Below are positions 49,198 to 63,368 of a DNA stretch of 64,000 bases, piece by piece (the first letter of the stretch is position 1; each line of letters starts with the position of its first letter). The stretch is from Escherichia coli (GTDB lineage Bacteria; Pseudomonadota; Gammaproteobacteria; Enterobacterales; Enterobacteriaceae), in the NCBI RefSeq assembly GCF_001677475.2, contig NZ_CP015229.1. The stretch is one strand, 5' to 3'. Both the position numbers and the translations under genes were made by a program. A model generated the notes under the pieces. That model saw only the letters and a program-made list of their open reading frames with translations, ran no database searches and was not told the origin of the DNA.

Positions 49198-49385
<188 letters not shown>

Positions 49386-52023: not shown

Positions 52024-52513
52024 CCCTCTTACCTGTATATCTCCCTCACATCCCGCGTTTCTAAATGCGGGATGCAACAAATATCCTCCTCTTTTTCCTC
52101 TGTTACCTCGTAGAGTCTACTTTTTACCAATGGCACTAAATCTGAAAATGCATTCAGTAAAAGGTTTGGTTCGACGCCTAAAAATGGAAGATATCATTCA
52201 TAAAATAAAACTTTTGCCGTTATTTTTTCCATCTACATTCTAAAAACTCACCCAAAACATTTATTGTGTGAATATTAAATGAAAGCTATTTTTCTGCTTT
52301 AAATGCAGTGTTTGACATCTGATAACCCTCCTCATTAAAATCCGCCTCCCTAACACAATTAAACAATTTTAAAACTTAATAAATAATTTTCATAACAAAT
52401 ATATTCGCAACATTCATAAAGCCAGCCGTATAAATCGCAAAAGCATCAACCACAAATGGACACATCCCTTAGACCGCGTTGGTATCAGGGATGATATGTA
52501 AGGATAACTTTAT

Positions 52514-53197
52514 ATGAAAGTGAATAAATTATTGATAAGCGTCCTGGCGGCTTCGACAATACTGATGCTGTCAGGTTGTGATTACGTCGAAAAAACGAAA
52601 GTCGTTGATGAACTCACAAAACAACAAGAAGAACAAAAGGCCAGAATTGATCAACTCGAAAAACGATTAGAACAAGAAACCAAAAAGACAAACACCATTG
52701 AAAAACAAAGCATTAGTCTGATAAACAGTACAAAGCTGCTGGCTCAGGTAGTGAAAGAGATTAAGCATCAGCAAGATACATTTGTCTTTACTGAATTTAA
52801 CCCCGATCAAACAAAATATTTCATTTTAAATAACGGTTCGGTAGGTATTGCCGGCAGGGTGTTATCTGTTGAAGCAATAGAAAATGGCAGTGTTATTCAT
52901 ATGTCATTGGCCAATTTATTAAGTGTTCCCGTATCAAATATTGGTTTTCATGCCACCTGGGGCGGTGAAAGACCGGGTGATCAAAAAGAATATGCCAAAT
53001 GGCAACAACTGCTATTTAGCACCAACATGAACTCCACGCTGAAATTATTACCAGGTCAATGGCAAGACATTAACTTGACGTTAAAAGGGGTGTCTCCCAA
53101 CAACCTGAAATACCTGAAGTTGGCTATTAATATGCAGAATATCAACTTCGACAACCTTCCACCTGCTGATAACCGGCAGAAAAAAAGCAAAAAATAA
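52514..53197 (+). CDS. Inner-membrane lipoprotein with coiled coil, SadB-like putative export helper for the downstream trimeric autotransporter
   Basis: 227 aa; signal peptide with lipobox LSGC followed by Asp at +2 (the inner-membrane retention signal); long coiled-coil (QQEEQKARIDQLEKRLEQETKK), then a beta-rich domain; Shine-Dalgarno AAGGA; AT-rich codon usage; 43 bp upstream of the adhesin gene on the same strand. Confidence 0.65.
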   Translation: MKVNKLLISVLAASTILMLSGCDYVEKTKVVDELTKQQEEQKARIDQLEKRLEQETKKTNTIEKQSISLINSTKLLAQVVKEIKHQQDTFVFTEFNPDQTKYFILNNGSVGIAGRVLSVEAIENGSVIHMSLANLLSVPVSNIGFHATWGGERPGDQKEYAKWQQLLFSTNMNSTLKLLPGQWQDINLTLKGVSPNNLKYLKLAINMQNINFDNLPPADNRQKKSKK

Positions 53198-53240: not shown

Positions 53241-56200
53241 ATGAACAAAATTTTTAAAGTTATCTGGAACCCTGCGACGGGAAGTTACAGCGTCGCCAGC
53301 GAAACGGCAAAAAGCCGTGGAAAGAAGAGCGGTCGCAGCAAGCTGTTAATTTCTGCGTTGGTTGCCGGTGGGTTGCTGTCGTCGTTCGGGGCGAGTGCTT
53401 CTGTCAGTCTTGATGGTGGTACATATTCTGATGGCACCGAACTTACTGATGCATGGATTGCTATTGGTAAAGGTGCGAAAGCTTCCTCTGTAGGCGGTAG
53501 CACAGCAAGTATTTCTATTGGGGTAAATGCAATCTCTGCTGCTGGGGCTACTGCAGTGGGTTATAACAGTAATGCTACTGGACAAAGTTCAGTATCAATG
53601 GGGCAGCTATCGAAAGCCACAGGGAGCAGGGGGGTTGCTATCGGCAGTGGAGCTAGTGCCATTGGCGACTATACAGTTGCATTAGCGGTTGGCTCCAGTG
53701 CTAGCGGTGAGAGTGCAGTGGCAATAGGTCAAGGTTCCGGAGCCAAAAATAAAGGTAGTGTTGCGTTAGGTAACAGAGCGTCATCATTAGGAGAAAAATC
53801 GGTAGCACTAGGGGTAGACAGTAAGGCCACTGGTGACGATAGCCTGGCATTAGGTAGAAACGCCTTGGGCAATAGCACAGGTTCCATTGCAATGGGTGCC
53901 GCAAGCGAAGCCAATGGATTATATAGTTTGGCATTAGGCGCAAGCAGCGTAGCTAACGCGGACAATACCGTTGCGCTCGGATATGGTGCCAATGCAGCCA
54001 AAGCTGGAGCAATGGCTTTCGGTCAGGCAGGAAAGGCAGATGGTGTAAATTCTATTGCGCTGGGTAATAAAAGTCAGTCAAGCGGCGAAAACAGTATTGT
54101 GCTTGGACAAGAAAGCTATGCTGGTAGTGAAAAAAGTATTGCGATTGGTAGCCTGTCCAACGTAACCGGTGTTAACTCCGTTGCTCTGGGCACAGAGTCT
54201 ACTGCCGTGGAAGATAATACTGTTTCAGTAGGTAACGACACGCTGCAGCGTAAAATTGTCCATATGGGAAAAGGCGATATTAGCAGTACCAGTACTGATG
54301 CCATCAATGGTTCACAGCTTTATGATATCAGTAAGTCAGTTGCAGACCGTCTGGGCGGCGGTGCCTCCGTGAGTACTGCCGGGGTTGTTAACGCCCCTAA
54401 CTACAAACTGCAAAGTGGTAACTTTAATAATGTTGGCGACGCATTAAAGGGTCTTGATGATAATACGTTGCAATGGGACTCGCTTAAAAAAGTCTACAGT
54501 GCAAAACACGGTTCCGATGCCACCAGCAAAATCACCAACGTTACGGCGGGTGAGCTGAACGCATCCAGTACCGACGCCGTTAACGGTTCTCAGTTGAAAA
54601 CCACTAACGACAATGTGGCAACCAACACCACTAATATCAGCAACCTGACCGGCGAAGTTGCTAACAACACCACCAATATCACTAACCTGACGAATGATGT
54701 TGCCGCCAACACCACCAGTATCACCAACCTGGCTGATACGGTGACTAACCTTGGTGAAGATGCGCTGAAATGGGATGACACCGCTGGCGTATTCACTGCT
54801 GCACACGGCACCGAAGCCACCAACAAAATCACCAATGTTACGGCAGGTGAGCTGACGGAGACCAGTACCGATGCGGTTAACGGTTCTCAGTTGAAAACCA
54901 CTAACGATAACGTGGCAACCAACACCACCAGTATCACCAACCTGACTGATACAGTGACTAACCTTGGTGCCGACGCGCTGGCATGGGATGACGCCTCAGG
55001 TGCATTCACCGCCAAACACGGCACCGAAGCCACCAACAAAATCACTAACGTTACGGCAGGTGAACTGACGGAGACCAGTACCGATGCCGTTAACGGTTCT
55101 CAGTTGAAAACCACTAACGATAACGTGGCAACCAACACCACCAATATCAGCAACCTGACCGGCGAAGTTGCTAACAACACCACCAACATCACTAACCTGA
55201 CGAATGATGTTGCCGCCAACACCACCAGTATCACCAACCTGGCTGATACGGTGACTAACCTTGGTGCCGACGCGCTGGCATGGGATGACGCCTCAGGTGC
55301 ATTCACCGCCAAACACGGCACCGAAGCCACCAACAAAATCACTAACGTTACGGCGGGTGAGCTGACGGAGACCAGTACTGATGCCGTTAACGGTTCTCAG
55401 TTAAAAACCACTAACGACAATGTGGCAACCAACACCACCAACATCACCAATCTGGCTGATACGGTGAACAACCTCGGTGAAGATGCGCTGAAATGGGATG
55501 ACGCCGCAAGCGCATTCACCGCTGCACACGGCACCGAAGCCACCAGCAAAATCACTAACGTCACCGCTGGAACAATCTCGTCTACCAGTACCGACGCTGT
55601 TAACGGTGGGCAACTCTTTAGCTTAAGTGATTCACTGGCAGACTATTTTGGCGGTAACGCCTCGGTTGATGAAAACGGTGTATTTACTGGCCCGTCCTAC
55701 ACCATCGGTAGCAACAGCTACGATAACGTAGGTGATGCGCTGGCGGCGATTAACACCTCCTTTAGCACTTCACTGGGCGACGCTCTGCTGTGGGATGAAA
55801 CGGCAAGTGCATTCAGCGCCGGCCACGGTGGCAATGCCAGCAAAATTACCAATGTCGCAAACGGTACTATTTCTGAAACCAGCACCGATGCCATCAATGG
55901 TGGGCAACTCTACGGTGTGAGCAACTCTGTTGTTGATGCCCTGGGCGGTGGCGCCGCAGTAAATGCTGACGGTAGCATCAGTGCGCCGACGTACTCCATT
56001 GCTGATACCGATTACAATAACGTCGGTGATGCTCTGGACGCGATCGACTCAACCCTGGATGATGCGCTGCTCTGGGACGCAACCGCCGGTGAAAATGGTG
56101 CGTTCAGCGCCAGCCGCGATGGCAAAGCCAGCGTAATCACTAATGTTGCTAATGGTGATATTTCTGAAACCAGTACTGATGCAATTAATGGTTCACAGTT

Positions 56201-57905
56201 GTTCGCCACCAACACGTTGATCAATCAGCAAAATGAGATCATCAACCAGATTGCCGGTAATACCAGCACAGACTACATCGAAGAGAACGGTGCGGGTCTG
56301 AACTATGCGCGTACTAATGACACCGGCTTAACCTTTATTGATGCGAGCGCATCAGGTACTGGCGCTACAGCGGTGGGTTATAACGCTGTCGCTTCCGGCG
56401 AAAGCAGTGTCGCAATTGGTCAGAATAGCAGCAGCAGCGTTGATACTGGTATCGCGCTGGGTAGCGAATCCGTCTCCAGCCGTGTGATTGTTAAAGGTTC
56501 TCGTAACACCAGCGTAACCGAAGAAGGCGTTGTGATTGGTTACGACACCACTGACGGCGAACTGCTTGGTGCATTGTCGATTGGCGATGATGGTAAGTAC
56601 CGTCAGATCATCAACGTTGCTGATGGTACTGAATCCCATGACGCCGTGACTGTACGCCAGTTGCAAAACGCCATTGGTGCGGTCGCCACTACGCCGACCA
56701 AGTACTACCATGCCAACTCAACGGAAGAAGATTCACTGGCGGTAGGTACTGACTCGCTGGCGATGGGCGCGAAAACTATCGTCAATGGTAATGCGGGTAT
56801 TGGTATCGGCCTGAATACTCTGGTTCTGGCAGATGCCATCAACGGTATTGCTATCGGTTCTAACGCACGCGCCAACCATGCAAACAGTATTGCAATGGGT
56901 AATGGTTCTCAGACCACTCGCGGCGCTCAGACTGGCTACACCGCCTACAACATGGACGCGCCGCAGAACTCTGTCGGTGAGTTCTCTGTCGGCAGTGAAG
57001 ACGGTCAACGTCAGATCACTAATGTCGCGGCGGGTTCGGCAGATACCGATGCCGTTAACGTTGGTCAGTTGAAAGTGACGGACGCACAGGTTTCCCAGAA
57101 CACCCAGAGCATTACTAACCTGAATACTCAGGTAACGAATCTGGATACCCGCGTCACCAATATCGAAAACGGTATTGGCGATATCGTAAGCACCGGTAGC
57201 ACCAAGTACTTCAAGACCAACACCGATGGCGTAGATGCTAACGCGCAGGGTAAAGACAGTGTTGCGATTGGCTCTGGCTCTATTGCTGCCGCTGATAACA
57301 GCGTTGCGCTGGGTACTGGCTCTGTGGCAAACGAAGAAAATACGATCTCCGTAGGTTCTTCCACTAACCAACGCCGTATCACCAACGTTGCCGCTGGTAA
57401 AAATGCTACTGACGCGGTTAACGTTGCGCAGTTGAAGTCTTCCGAAGCAGGCGGCGTGCGCTATGACACCAAAGCTGACGGTTCTGTTGATTACAGCAAC
57501 ATCACTCTCGGCGGTGGTAATGGCGGAACGACTCGCATCAGCAACGTTTCCGCTGGCGTTAACAACAACGACGCGGTGAACTACGCGCAGTTGAAGCAAA
57601 GCGTGCAGGAAACGAAGCAATACACCGATCAGCGCATGGTTGAGATGGATAACAAACTGTCCAAAACCGAAAGCAAGTTGAGCGGTGGTATCGCTTCTGC
57701 AATGGCGATGACCGGTCTGCCGCAGGCTTACACGCCAGGTGCCAGCATGGCCTCCATTGGTGGCGGTACATACAACGGTGAATCGGCTGTTGCTTTAGGT
57801 GTGTCGATGGTGAGCGCCAACGGTCGTTGGGTCTACAAATTACAAGGTAGTACCAATAGCCAGGGTGAATACTCCGCCGCACTTGGTGCCGGTATTCAGT
57901 GGTAA
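53241..57905 (+). CDS. upaG: Trimeric autotransporter adhesin (YadA-like head/stalk repeats and C-terminal membrane anchor), UpaG/EhaG/SadA-like
   Basis: 1554 aa; extended signal peptide [27 protein letters not shown]...; many head-type repeats (SVALG, NSIALG, AVAIG); neck-like motifs (TDAVNGSQL); tandem stalk repeats; C-terminal YadA-type anchor ending ...AALGAGIQW. Confidence 0.8.
54540..55600 (+). repeat. In-frame tandem coding repeats (alternating ~297-nt and ~213-nt units) within the adhesin stalk
   Basis: GTTAACGGTTCTCAGTTGAAAACCACTAACGA recurs at about 54579, 54875, 55088 and 55385; the encoded 99-aa and 71-aa units ([21 protein letters not shown]...[21 protein letters not shown]) are near-identical at nucleotide level. 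Confidence 0.9.
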
Positions 57906-58022: not shown

Positions 58023-58321
58023 GATAAGACGCACCAGGTCAATGGTCTAAGGGCAATTCTCTGACGGGGATTGCCCTTTTCTTTACCAGACATCTCCCTA
58101 TCAAAAAATTGGCCCTACCAATTCTTCGCTTATCTGACCACTGGTTCACAGTTCCCCAATTAAAACTCACATTAACGTTGCCAATACAAAACATTTAGTT
58201 AACTATTCATTGTCATTATCCCTACACAACAAAATTGGCAGTGCCACTTTTACACAACGTGTGACAAGGAGATGAGCAACAGACTCATTACACGATGTGC
58301 GTGGCCTCCAGGAGACCTGCA

Positions 58322-59977
58322 ATGAATCTCTGGCAACAAAACTACGATCCCGCCGGGAATATCTGGCTTTCCAGCCTGATAGCATCGCTTCCCATCCTGT
58401 TTTTTTTCTTTGCGCTTATTAAGCTCAAACTAAAAGGCTATGTCGCCGCTACATGGACAGTCGTTATCGCTCTGACTGTCGCGCTATTGTTCTACAAAAT
58501 GCCGGTCGCCAATGCGCTGGCCTCAGTGGTTTATGGCTTCTTCTACGGTTTGTGGCCCATCGCGTGGATCATTATTGCAGCGGTGTTCGTCTATAAGATC
58601 TCGGTGAAAACCGGACAGTTTGACATCATCCGCTCGTCTATTCTTTCAATAACCCCTGACCAGCGCCTGCAAATGCTGATCGTCGGTTTCTGTTTCGGCG
58701 CATTTCTCGAAGGTGCCGCAGGCTTTGGCGCACCGGTAGCAATTACCGCCGCATTGCTGGTCGGGCTGGGCTTTAAACCGCTGTACGCCGCCGGGCTGTG
58801 CCTGATTGTTAACACCGCGCCGGTGGCATTTGGCGCGATGGGTATTCCGATTCTGGTTGCCGGACAGGTAACAGGCATCGACAGCTTTGAGATTGGCCAG
58901 ATGGTGGGACGTCAGCTACCGTTTATGACCATTATCGTGCTGTTCTGGATCATGGCGATTATGGACGGCTGGCGGGGTATCAAAGAGACGTGGCCTGCGG
59001 TCGTGGTCGCGGGAGGCTCGTTTGCCATCGCACAGTACCTTAGCTCTAACTTTATTGGGCCGGAACTGCCGGACATTATCTCTTCGCTGGTATCGCTGCT
59101 CTGCCTGACACTGTTCCTCAAACGTTGGCAGCCGGTGCGCGTTTTCCGCTTCGGCGATCTGGGCGCATCGCAAGTTGATATGACGCTGGCTCATACCGGT
59201 TACACCGCAGGTCAGGTGTTACGCGCCTGGACACCGTTCCTGTTCCTGACCGCCACCGTAACGCTGTGGAGTATTCCGCCGTTTAAAGCCCTGTTCGCTT
59301 CGGGTGGTGCGCTGTATGAATGGGTGATCAATATTCCGGTGCCGTACCTCAATAAACTGGTTGCCCGTATGCCGCCAGTGGTCAGCGAAGCGACAGCGTA
59401 TGCCGCCGTGTTTAAGTTCGACTGGTTCTCTGCCACCGGTACCGCCATTCTTTTTGCTGCCCTGCTCTCGATTGTCTGGCTGAAGATGAAACCATCTGAC
59501 GCTATCAGCACCTTCGGCAGCACGCTGAAAGAACTGGCTCTGCCCATCTACTCCATCGGTATGGTGCTGGCGTTCGCCTTTATCTCGAACTATTCCGGAC
59601 TATCATCAACGCTGGCGCTGGCACTGGCGCACACCGGCCATGCATTCACCTTCTTCTCGCCGTTCCTCGGCTGGCTTGGTGTCTTCCTGACCGGATCGGA
59701 TACCTCATCTAACGCCCTGTTCGCCGCCCTGCAAGCCACTGCAGCACAACAAATTGGCGTTTCTGACCTGTTGTTGGTTGCCGCCAACACCACCGGTGGT
59801 GTCACCGGTAAGATGATCTCTCCGCAATCTATCGCTATCGCCTGTGCGGCGGTAGGCCTGGTAGGCAAAGAGTCAGATCTGTTCCGCTTTACCGTCAAAC
59901 ACAGCCTGATCTTCACCTGTATGGTGGGCGTGATTACCACGCTTCAGGCCTACGTCTTAACGTGGATGATTCCGTAA
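58322..59977 (+). CDS. lldP: L-lactate permease
   Basis: Start at internal ATG 58322 ([30 protein letters not shown]...), 551 aa, polytopic membrane protein recognised as LldP. Confidence 0.95.
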
Positions 59978-60753
59978 TGATGGTTATACCCAGACGCCTG
60001 TCAGACGAGGTAGCTTCCCGTGTGCGGGCGCTGATTGAAGAACAAAATCTGGAACCGGGCATGAAGTTGCCCGCTGAACGCCAACTGGCGATGCAGCTCG
60101 GCGTGTCGCGTAATTCACTGCGCGAGGCGCTGGCGAAACTGGTGAGTGAAGGTGTGCTTCTTAGTCGTCGCGGTGGCGGGACGTTTATTCGCTGGCGCCA
60201 TGACGTGTGGTCGGAACAAAACATCGTCCAGCCGCTGAAAACGCTAATGGCCGATGATCCGGATTACAGCTTCGATATTCTGGAAGCCCGCTACGCCATT
60301 GAGGCCAGCACCGCCTGGCACGCAGCAATGCGTGCCACACAAGCCGATAAAGAAAAGATACAGCTCTGCTTTGAAGCGACGCTGAGTGAAGACCCGGATC
60401 TCGCCTCGCAAGCGGACGTTCGTTTTCATCTGGCAATTGCCGAAGCCTCACATAACATCGTGCTGCTGCAAACCATGCGCGGTTTCTTTGATGTCCTGCA
60501 ATCTTCAGTGATGCAAAGTCGTCAGCGGATGTATCTGGTGCCGCCCGTTTTTTCGCAACTGACTGAACAGCATCAGGCGGTCATTAACGCCATTTTTGCC
60601 GGTGATGCCGACGGTGCGCGTAAAGCAATGATGTCGCACCTCAGCTTTGTCCACACCACCATGAAACGATTCGATGAAGATCAGGCTCGCCGTGCACGCA
60701 TTACCCGCCTGCCCGGTGAGCATAATGAGCATTCGAGGGAGAAAAACGCATGA
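59977..60753 (+). CDS. lldR: GntR/FadR-family L-lactate operon regulator
   Basis: Start at ATG 59977 ([25 protein letters not shown]...), 258 aa; GntR-type HTH (...[25 protein letters not shown]); shares one nucleotide with the lldP stop. Confidence 0.9.
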
Positions 60754-61940
60754 TTATTTCCGCAGCCAGCGATTATCGCGCCGCAGCGCAACGCATTTTG
60801 CCGCCGTTCCTGTTCCACTATATGGATGGTGGTGCATATTCTGAATACACGCTGCGCCGCAACGTGGAGGATTTGTCAGAAGTGGCGCTGCGCCAGCGTA
60901 TTCTGAAAAACATGTCCGACTTAAGCCTGGAAACGACGCTGTTTAATGAGAAATTGTCGATGCCAGTGGCGCTGGCTCCGGTGGGTTTGTGCGGCATGTA
61001 TGCGCGTCGCGGCGAAGTTCAGGCAGCCAAAGCGGCTGATGCGCATGGCATTCCGTTTACTCTCTCAACGGTTTCAGTTTGCCCGATTGAAGAAGTCGCT
61101 CCAGCTATCAAACGTCCGATGTGGTTCCAGCTTTATGTGCTGCGCGATCGCGGCTTTATGCGTAACGCACTGGAACGGGCAAAAGCGGCGGGCTGTTCGA
61201 CACTGGTTTTCACCGTGGATATGCCGACGCCAGGCGCACGTTATCGTGACGCACACTCCGGTATGAGCGGCCCGAATGCCGCAATGCGCCGCTACTTGCA
61301 GGCGGTGACGCATCCGCAATGGGCGTGGGATGTCGGCCTGAACGGTCGTCCACATGATTTAGGTAATATTTCGGCTTACCTCGGCAAACCGACCGGACTG
61401 GAAGATTACATCGGCTGGCTGGGGAATAACTTCGATCCGTCCATCTCATGGAAAGACCTTGAGTGGATCCGCGATTTCTGGGATGGCCCGATGGTGATCA
61501 AAGGGATCCTCGACCCGGAAGATGCGCGTGATGCAGTACGTTTTGGTGCTGACGGGATTGTGGTTTCTAACCACGGTGGCCGCCAGCTGGACGGTGTACT
61601 CTCTTCCGCTCGTGCGCTGCCCGCTATTGCGGATGCGGTAAAAGGTGATATCGCCATTCTGGCGGATAGCGGGATTCGTAACGGGCTTGATGTCGTGCGT
61701 ATGATTGCGCTCGGTGCCGACACCGTACTGCTGGGTCGTGCTTTCCTGTATGCGCTGGCAACAGCGGGCCAGGCGGGTGTAGCTAACCTGCTGAATCTGA
61801 TCGAAAAAGAGATGAAAGTGGCAATGACGCTGACTGGCGCGAAATCGATTAGCGAAATTACGCAAGATTCGCTGGTGCAGGGGCTGGATAAAGAGTTGCC
61901 TGCGGCACTGGCTCCGATGGCGAAAGGGAATGCGGCATAG
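60750..61940 (+). CDS. lldD: L-lactate dehydrogenase (FMN-dependent)
   Basis: 396-aa ORF recognised as LldD, FMN-dependent alpha-hydroxyacid dehydrogenase pattern; 4-nt overlap with lldR. Confidence 0.96.
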
Positions 61941-62011
61941 TTGGGGTGAGGGGAAAAGGCCGTACCAATCACCAATTTTCTGCTATCCTGCCCCCGCACT
62001 AAGGGGGCAGT

Positions 62012-62485
62012 ATGCTAAACATCGTACTTTACGAACCAGAAATTCCGCCAAATACTGGCAACATCATCCGTCTTTGCGCTAATACCGGCTTTCGTCTACA
62101 TATCATCGAACCGATGGGATTTGCCTGGGACGATAAGCGCCTGCGCCGCGCGGGGCTGGACTATCACGAGTTTACCGCCGTTACGCGTCATCATGACTAT
62201 CGCGCGTTCGTCGAAGCCGAAAATCCCCAGCGCCTGTTTGCCCTCACCACGAAAGGTACGCCTGCTCACAGCGCCGTAAGCTATCAGGATGGCGATTATC
62301 TGATGTTCGGCCCGGAAACGCGCGGCCTGCCAGCAAGCATTCTTGATGCCCTGCCCGCTGAACAAAAAATTCGCATTCCAATGGTGCCGGACAGCCGCAG
62401 CATGAACCTGTCCAATGCGGTGTCGGTCGTGGTGTATGAAGCCTGGCGGCAGTTGGGATATCCGGGAGCGGTGTTGAGAGATTAG
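62012..62485 (+). CDS. trmL: tRNA (cytidine/uridine-2'-O)-methyltransferase TrmL (SPOUT family)
   Basis: 157-aa [37 protein letters not shown]..., recognised as TrmL/YibK. Confidence 0.93.
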
Positions 62486-62496
62486 TTACGCCATGC

Positions 62497-62533
62497 CGGA
62501 TAAGATGCGTTATGAACCGCATCGCATCCGGCA
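62497..62533. repeat. REP-like palindromic element
   Basis: GCCGGATAAGATGCGTTATGAACCGCATCGCATCCGGC between trmL and cysE. Confidence 0.7.
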
Positions 62534-62546
62534 TAATCACAGGACA

Positions 62547-63368
62547 TCAGATCCCATCCCCATATTCAAACGTATGGTTAATACCGTTGAAATGCTGATC
62601 CATGTCCATTGACGGTTTATCGCTGTCTGGTTTACCGACAATGCGTGCCGGAACGCCAGCGGCGGTGGTATGCGGCGGCACCGGTTGCAGCACCACGGAA
62701 CCTGCGCCAATCTTCGCGCCGCGCCCAACTTCAATATTGCCGAGGATTTTCGCGCCCGCGCCAATCATCACACCTTCACGAATTTTCGGGTGACGGTCAC
62801 CACCAGATTTACCCGTACCGCCAAGCGTGACAGATTGCAGTATCGACACATCGTTTTCAATCACCGCCGTTTCACCAACGACGATGCCTGTCGCGTGGTC
62901 GAGCATGATACCGCGACCGATTTTTGCTGCCGGGTGAATATCCACCTGGAACGTCACAGAAACCTGGTTTTGCAGAAAGATTGCCAGTGCGCGGCGGCCC
63001 TGATTCCACAGCCAGTGACCGATGCGATAGGCCTGCAAGGCATGAAAACCTTTCAGGTATAACAGTGGGGTTGAGTATTTATCGACTGCCGGGTCGCGGG
63101 TACGTACGGCCTGAATATCGCAGGCCGCAGAAGCGATCATTTCCGGGTCGGCGGCGTAGGCTTCTTCAACCACTTCGCGGATAGCAATGGCAGGCATAAT
63201 TGGCGATGACAGCTTGTTCGCCAGCATGTAGCTCAGTGCACTGCCAAGGTTTTCGTGCTTGAGTAGCGTTGCGTGGTAAAAACTGGCCAGCATTGGCTCA
63301 CAGTCCGCCAGCGTTCTGGCTTCCGCTTTAATATTGTTCCAGACAATTTCCAGTTCTTCACACGACAT
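62547..63368 (-). CDS. cysE: Serine O-acetyltransferase
   Basis: 273 aa; N-terminus MSCEELEIVWNNIKAEAR; C-terminal left-handed beta-helix hexapeptide repeats. Confidence 0.97.
   Translation of the reverse strand: MSCEELEIVWNNIKAEARTLADCEPMLASFYHATLLKHENLGSALSYMLANKLSSPIMPAIAIREVVEEAYAADPEMIASAACDIQAVRTRDPAVDKYSTPLLYLKGFHALQAYRIGHWLWNQGRRALAIFLQNQVSVTFQVDIHPAAKIGRGIMLDHATGIVVGETAVIENDVSILQSVTLGGTGKSGGDRHPKIREGVMIGAGAKILGNIEVGRGAKIGAGSVVLQPVPPHTTAAGVPARIVGKPDSDKPSMDMDQHFNGINHTFEYGDGI

Follow-up and report, generated by a model that had tools for sequence, protein, structure and literature searches.

Does the repetitive stalk of the trimeric autotransporter adhesin encoded in this Escherichia coli DNA (64,000 nt, referred to as the window) change its length in nature, and if so, by which kind of event? 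The original prediction regarded alternating in-frame tandem repeats in the adhesin gene as prone to expansion and contraction, by which the stalk length would change. To answer the question, we examined the identity of the gene, the anatomy of its repeat block, and the architecture of related alleles, for which the evidence of variation is throughout a comparison of assemblies.

An adhesin gene between the mtl operon and lldP

The open reading frame at 53241..57905 (+), the sole long one in that region, encodes a 1554-aa trimeric autotransporter adhesin. The exact protein match is ANO91553.1, annotated as "YadA-like family protein [Escherichia coli]", and the identical 1554-aa protein is present on 19 contigs, the longest of 5.50 Mb. 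The precomputed Pfam domains are ESPR (PF13018), YadA_head (PF05658), YadA_stalk (PF05662), and YadA_anchor (PF03895), the last of which is located at the C-terminus and was also precomputed for the called genes of the compared loci. According to Pfam, the passenger is composed of YadA-like heads, necks, and a coiled-coil stalk in addition to the N-terminal extended signal peptide. The NCBIfam search of the adhesin gave no family at cut-off and returned no UpaG, EhaG, or SadA model. The matches below threshold were Vomp, Ata, EmaA, BimA, and YadA, and the C-terminus resembles the anchor end of the EmaA and YadA models, under their whole-protein cut-offs. Judging from the homology to trimeric SadA fragments, the protein would form an obligate homotrimer on the cell surface.

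The gene order of the locus is mtlA, mtlD, mtlR, yibL, a sadB-like lipoprotein gene, the adhesin gene, and then lldP, lldR, and lldD. SadA of Salmonella enterica as well as UpaG and EhaG of E. coli are encoded at the same site, in the order mtlR, yibL, sadB-like lipoprotein gene, adhesin gene, lldP, and the adhesin of the window has the position of this group, namely between the mtl operon and lldP with a sadB-type gene preceding it. The domain set of the group is also that of our adhesin: ESPR signal, YadA heads, necks, DALL, FGG-type inserts, and YadA anchor. The lipoprotein gene (52514..53197 (+)) encodes a 227-aa SadB/YajI-type lipoprotein (DUF3251), and its stop codon lies 43 nt before the adhesin gene. 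RefSeq names the E. coli counterparts "SadB/YajI family lipoprotein" or "DUF3251 domain-containing protein", the NCBIfam search found no match for the lipoprotein, and a gene of this type is kept upstream of the adhesin in all related loci.

In megablast searches, 42-69% of the adhesin gene aligned to genes annotated as upaG, ehaG, or YadA-like at ~83% nucleotide identity. Against genes annotated as upaG or ehaG, the 3' part is ~83% identical. The N-terminal 405 aa are ~90% identical to a Salmonella allele and only ~50% identical to proteins of UpaG length (1778 aa). We searched 5,426 complete RefSeq E. coli genomes by megablast, and in no case was 80% or more of the allele covered; the best genome covers 69% at 82.6% identity. 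On the basis of the shared neighbours and the lack of a complete genome covering 80%, we regard the gene as the SadA/UpaG/EhaG positional orthologue in a rare allelic form.

Two further elements near the gene are matches to a consensus only. A promoter-like site (TTGACA-18-TAAAAT, 11/12; 52312..52341 (+)) upstream of the lipoprotein gene is a possible operon promoter, while the count of promoter-like sites in the region is not above the shuffled expectation. A terminator-like hairpin with 13 pairs followed by a T-run is found 3' of the adhesin gene (58049..58078 (+)). Rfam gave no match at the gathering threshold between 46000 and 60000, and thus an RNA element does not explain the repeats.

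Modular anatomy of the stalk repeats

When the unit boundaries were set at the recurring LxWD motif of the protein, a block of four units emerged at 54468..55487, all of them in frame and multiples of 3 in length. U1 (54468..54764 (+)) and U3 (54978..55274 (+)) represent a long form of 297 nt or 99 aa, and U2 (54765..54977 (+)) and U4 (55275..55487 (+)) a short form of 213 nt or 71 aa. The repeat search of the sequence gave start-to-start spacings of 297, 213, and 297. The alternation of 297- and 213-nt units had thus been predicted exactly, and the extent proposed for the block, 54540-55600, was about right, with the block beginning roughly 70 nt earlier. What sets the long unit apart from the short one is an extra 84 nt, made up of two coiled-coil repeats of 42 nt (14 aa) each. 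Downstream of the four units follow two modules of a different type (99 and 94 aa; 55488..56066 (+)) consisting of DALL, neck, and an FGG-like insert and containing the direct-repeat families D3 and D4. Their homology to U1-U4 is limited to the first ~123 nt, that is, to about 55610.

Tandem Repeats Finder, which had been suggested as a check of the prediction, recovered both the units and the smaller repeats. Arrays with a period of 213 were found at 54706-55159 (90% matches, score 754) and 55216-55607 (81%, score 546). Arrays with a period of 42 were found at 54623..54731 (+) within U1 and at 55133..55241 (+) within U3, each with 2.6 copies of a 14-aa sub-repeat with the pattern NTTxIxNLxxxVxx. 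The similarity between units is far above chance and spans whole units, which rules out a resemblance confined to short motifs. To call the units near-identical was, on the other hand, an overstatement. The whole-unit nucleotide identity is 93.0% for U3-U4, 92.0% for U2-U3, 86.2% for U1-U3, 85.9% for U2-U4, and 80.8% for U1-U2. Units therefore differ at 7-19% of nucleotides, many of the differences being non-synonymous.

Within the units, long stretches identical at the nucleotide level do exist, as had been proposed. The longest exact repeat in the block has 104 nt (left copy 54954..55057 (+), right copy 55251..55354 (+), spacing 297). Exact repeats of 79 nt (54678..54756 (+) and 55188-55266, spacing 510) and 55 nt (54876..54930 (+) and 55089-55143, spacing 213) were also found. 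In a permutation test for mosaic structure the 104-nt run was borderline (P 0.054), and the mismatches between units cluster in the variable DALL loop. With a run of such weak significance (P about 0.05) and mismatches clustered in this way, we make no claim for ongoing gene conversion between units.

What would one unit correspond to in the fibre? Six YadA_stalk matches were obtained when residues 381-960 were searched with Pfam, one of them in each of the units U1-U4. A solved fragment of SadA, 2YNZ, aligns with the repeat block at an E value of 5e-22 over chain residues 13-117, and this homology includes U1 with its DALL, neck, and long coiled coil. The alignment spans a coiled coil, the LGxDALxWD motif (DALL), a neck (a motif of 14 residues), and the next coiled coil. 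The block itself runs in the same order as 2YNZ, from coiled coil through LGxDALxWD and neck (a motif of 22 residues) to coiled coil, and it also aligns with 2YO2 and 3ZMF, which are SadA fragments as well. One YadA_stalk match per unit together with the 2YNZ alignment indicates that each repeat is a complete structural module of the fibre, in which a DALL domain is followed by a short neck and a stretch of trimeric coiled coil. In the 14-residue sub-repeat, I, L, V, and N are spaced by 3 and 4, which places asparagine at every second core position. This asparagine-bearing core presumably corresponds to the coiled coil with a polar core known from SadA. Weak matches of the block to 2WPQ and 2WPR are consistent with a polar-core coiled coil without proving it.

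Natural length variants and their explanation

We parsed the unit architecture in the best 120 homologues and compared their flanks with the protein of the window. The prediction that homologues vary in length held well, since these 120 proteins contain between 1 and 8 coiled-coil-type units each. The unit lengths fit 71+7n aa (71, 78, 85, 99, and 106), apart from a few that are shorter by two residues. Alleles with 98-100% identical flanks display five architectures. The protein of the window (1554 aa) has the arrangement 99-71-99-71, which is specific to this allele. The proteins P0008 and P0012 (both 1455 aa) have 99-71-71, with N-terminal 405 aa that are 100% identical to those of the window and C-terminal 604 aa that are 100% and 99.8% identical, respectively. 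The others are P0029 (1412 aa) with 99-99, P0005 (1575 aa) with 99-85-99-78, and P0004 (1653 aa) with 99-78-85-99-78. A second group sharing one common flank type contains 99, 99-78, 85-99-78, 85-85-99-78, and 99-85-99-78. Every variant allele stays an open frame. More distant orthologues, from Pseudocitrobacter, Citrobacter, and Escherichia sp. E1V33, have quite different module layouts.

The nucleotide sequences of the closest loci allowed the junctions to be located. An independent assembly, L004, matches the window at every one of 10,665 nt. The loci L001 and L005 correspond to the window minus exactly 297 nt, with 1 and 3 SNPs, respectively, outside the block in ~9.6 kb compared. The short allele belongs to the assemblies GCA_018682865.1 and GCA_019141265.1, and the long allele is represented by GCA_031299685.2. 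L001 shows no mismatch to the window up to 55057 and resumes at 55355, so that the junction is inside the 104-nt identity, which is the crossover zone of this natural 297-nt deletion. In L001 the diagnostic bases change from U2/U3-type to U3/U4-type within the 104-nt stretch, and the junction of L005 is placed there too. L002 is without 213 nt twice. The first of these deletions has its crossover zone in the 55-nt repeat, and the other junction is inside a 13-nt identity (55280-55292 = 55493-55505) that sits in roughly 79%-similar sequence. The flank of L002 carries 35 SNPs relative to the window, and L002 thus need not descend directly from the allele of the window. In L003, sequence is gained, with 42 nt (one sub-repeat) added in U2 and 21 nt in U4.

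A closely related allele in Salmonella offers a copy-number series. The form L008 (4.80 Mb contig) has two units of 297 nt, L007 (CP066545.1, 4.90 Mb) has three, and L006 (CP176655.1, 4.95 Mb) has four. L006 and L007 are identical except for one 297-nt unit, and L008 is set apart from L007 by one unit and a single SNP (8.2-8.5 kb compared). The two-unit form was found on 250 contigs and the three-unit form on 147. The Salmonella allele contains an exact repeat of 619 nt, as opposed to units of just 81-93% identity in the window, for which reason the allele of the window is probably the less unstable of the two.

Because such alleles are read from assemblies, one might suspect that short reads were collapsed or mis-threaded through the repeats and that there are no real length alleles at all. 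L001, L003, and L005 are taken from draft assemblies, and L002 is a scaffold from a metagenome. If a de Bruijn assembler jumped over the loop that separates the 104-nt copies, the result would be exactly the junction of L001. The draft genome representing the species E. coli splits the adhesin gene over two contigs, L015 and L016. The repeats of a related adhesin, BadA, had also been overlooked by earlier sequencing. As an account of the phenomenon as a whole, an artefact is nevertheless very unlikely. The Salmonella alleles with two, three, and four units are on contigs of 4.80-4.95 Mb, including two CP-numbered complete genomes, and the two- and three-unit forms each recur on >140 contigs. 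L001 and L005 share a flanking SNP absent from the full-length assemblies (position 58189, T in both, A in the window and in L004). An amino-acid change in P0012 accompanies the short form only, with no 1554-aa carrier among the closest homologues listed. The 42 and 21 nt added in L003 cannot come from collapsing the sequence of the window, whose longest exact repeat is shorter than common read lengths. The related warning that the copy number in the source genome itself might be collapsed is also unlikely to apply, given the 19 agreeing contigs (one of 5.5 Mb), the identity of L004 over 10,665 nt, and the absence of any exact repeat longer than 104 nt.

If the alleles are real, their differences could still be ancient, the modules being old domain duplications that selection on the protein has held alike. 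The divergence between units, with its many non-synonymous differences, the recurrence of the same allele on 19 contigs, and the quite different architecture of the Citrobacter and Pseudocitrobacter orthologues would agree with such static modules. We consider this highly improbable, because alleles with 0-3 flank SNPs in ~9.6 kb differ by a whole unit, because the Salmonella series with at most 1 flank SNP also differs by units, and because the junctions coincide with the longest identical stretches. Nor does the variation look programmed, whether by a diversity-generating element, by a recombinase acting at specific sites, or by phase variation in which simple repeats switch the gene on and off. 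Phase variation was raised as a possibility for the BadA locus by its authors, and we found nothing here in favour of programmed variation. Among the neighbours (mtlADR, yibL, the sadB-like gene, and lldPRD) there is no gene for a recombinase or a reverse transcriptase, and the junction homology varies (104, 55, and 13 nt) instead of marking a single fixed site. All units being multiples of 3, a frameshift switch is impossible. Programmed variation is accordingly the most improbable of these explanations, and we rejected a simple-sequence, on/off phase-variable contingency locus, as the periods of 21, 42, 213, and 297 are all multiples of 3.

Misaligned pairing as a probable cause, and the possible meaning of stalk length

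The remaining explanation, which we regard as very probable, is that in-frame stalk modules are gained and lost whole by misaligned pairing between identical stretches. Precise in-frame gain or loss of units, with junctions in shared identity, is seen in near-isogenic natural alleles, and the block has the properties of copy-variable in-frame surface-protein repeats, with long identical stretches and close strains that differ by whole units. The proposal that the repeats are a substrate for changes of stalk length is therefore borne out by L001, L005, L002, L003, and the Salmonella series. Mechanistically, identical stretches of 55-104 nt in the same reading phase would let modules misalign, and the misaligned pairing would remove or add whole modules of 297, 213, or 510 nt. 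At a smaller scale, coiled-coil sub-repeats of 42 or 21 nt would be added or lost. Since the frame is kept and the quantisation by 7 residues preserves the heptad register of the coiled coil, the products should still fold as a fibre of a different length.

In E. coli, direct repeats give rise to deletions and duplications either by RecA-dependent unequal exchange or by RecA-independent replication slippage. The adhesin gene resembles such cases in having close tandem repeats that are identical over tens of bases up to about a hundred, and precise junctions inside the identity. The pairing could occur by unequal recombination between sister chromosomes or by slippage during replication, and the sequence is compatible with both. 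With only 13 nt of identity, one of the L002 junctions would be more easily explained by slippage than by RecA-mediated exchange. Any statement on the enzymatic route, RecA-dependent or not, on the rate, or on how a changed stalk may affect antibody recognition and the distance to which the head extends beyond LPS or capsule is an inference from the compared alleles. As 19 contigs have the allele unchanged, the turnover is not fast on an epidemiological scale.

A direct precedent is BadA of Bartonella henselae, likewise a trimeric autotransporter with repetitive modules. Strains vary in how many neck/stalk modules they have and in how these are arranged, with 18-34 of them per strain by long-read sequencing, and their multiplication and deletion were ascribed to recombination; short-read or Sanger data had overlooked the repeats (PMC8859334). 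Unlike BadA, with its many modules and flanking donor pseudogenes, the adhesin of the window is encoded by a single-copy gene with four modules of two sizes, and the events observed at it are simple gains or losses of units. The modular and repetitive make-up of trimeric autotransporter adhesins has been reviewed as a route to rapid adaptation. Our literature search for length variation of UpaG found nothing specific. Gain and loss of units is the expected and well-known behaviour of repetitive fibre adhesins, here found in the enterobacterial SadA/UpaG/EhaG group.

The rise of a coiled coil is about 0.15 nm per residue. By our estimate, the 28 residues that distinguish the long from the short unit would thus correspond to about 4 nm, and a whole 99-aa unit to several nm more. 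The function of SadA is masked by LPS or fimbriae according to a review, and stalk length is therefore plausible as a selected trait. A more far-reaching reading, which we regard as doubtful, would see stalk length as a heptad-quantised trait (71+7n, 1-8 units) tuned in each lineage to the thickness of O-antigen or capsule. The block would then be a length-setting contingency region and not just a neutral polymorphism, and the sharing of modules between Escherichia and Salmonella an exchange of length cassettes.

UpaG, EhaG, and SadA have been proposed in reviews as candidates for vaccines or surface display. Otherwise identical strains carry different numbers of stalk modules, so the length of the adhesin gene should not be treated as constant when antigens are designed, typing schemes set up, or the gene annotated from short reads. 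The near-isogenic pairs provide ready material for asking whether the stalk length alters adhesion in cells whose adhesin is masked by LPS or capsule.

Hairpins and repeat units in the adhesin stalk

Among the closest homologues of the adhesin (P0002-P0120), the coiled-coil units of the stalk are 71, 78, 85, 99 or 106 aa long. A 92-aa unit, which would correspond to 71+21 aa, was found in none of the 120 closest proteins; units of this length are present in two distant orthologues. Every one of the four units of the main block (U1-U4) contains the sequence GTGGCAACCAACACCAC, which can form a hairpin of 6 pairs, with single copies at 54615-54631, 54912-54928, 55125-55141 and 55422-55438. The hairpin ends just 5' of the point where the coiled-coil sub-repeat is inserted or lost (junctions 54930/54931). 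The hairpin may promote slippage; alternatively, it may have arisen from the codons by chance.

Downstream of U1-U4, the FGG-type modules contain a second, weaker direct repeat of 95 nt (55807-55901 and 56098-56192; 81% identity, spacing 291). We found no copy variation at this repeat in the homologues compared, with the exception of UpaG-like alleles, which have 2-3 FGG-type modules. In the species-representative draft assembly (Escherichia coli SCPM-O-B-8794), the orthologous adhesin gene is divided over two contig ends (L015 and L016). The adhesin gene is a place where short-read assemblies can break.

The region upstream of the adhesin gene

The adhesin gene is immediately preceded by a SadB/YajI-type lipoprotein gene (DUF3251; 52514-53197), which is kept at all related loci compared, and whose product gave no match in the NCBIfam search. 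SadB has been reported to be a helper of SadA display on the surface. The segment 49239-53240, used as a query, has a median of 21 matching places per E. coli genome, from which we infer that it contains a short dispersed repeat. This repeat is probably of the REP type, and the spacer between mtlA and mtlD is a likely site. There, the ORF at 49239 has an odd, arginine-rich N-terminal extension.

Ancestry of the allele and of the source strain

The housekeeping genes lldP, lldR, lldD, trmL and cysE (58295-63368) have matches in 5,424 complete RefSeq E. coli genomes, and in virtually all of these the identity is just 90-95%. The adhesin allele (53241-57905) is carried by none of the complete RefSeq E. 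coli genomes searched. Entries named Escherichia ruysiae are among the closest protein relatives of the adhesin. The source strain, labeled E. coli at NCBI, may be a member of a cryptic Escherichia clade.

The N-terminal 405 aa of the adhesin, comprising the head region (53241-54455), are about 90% identical to a Salmonella enterica allele at the protein level, whereas for many proteins from E. coli, among them the ones as long as UpaG (1778 aa), the identity is only 46-60%. The 99-aa stalk unit is also found in Escherichia and Salmonella alike. These sequence similarities suggest either old allele lineages common to both genera or exchange between them.
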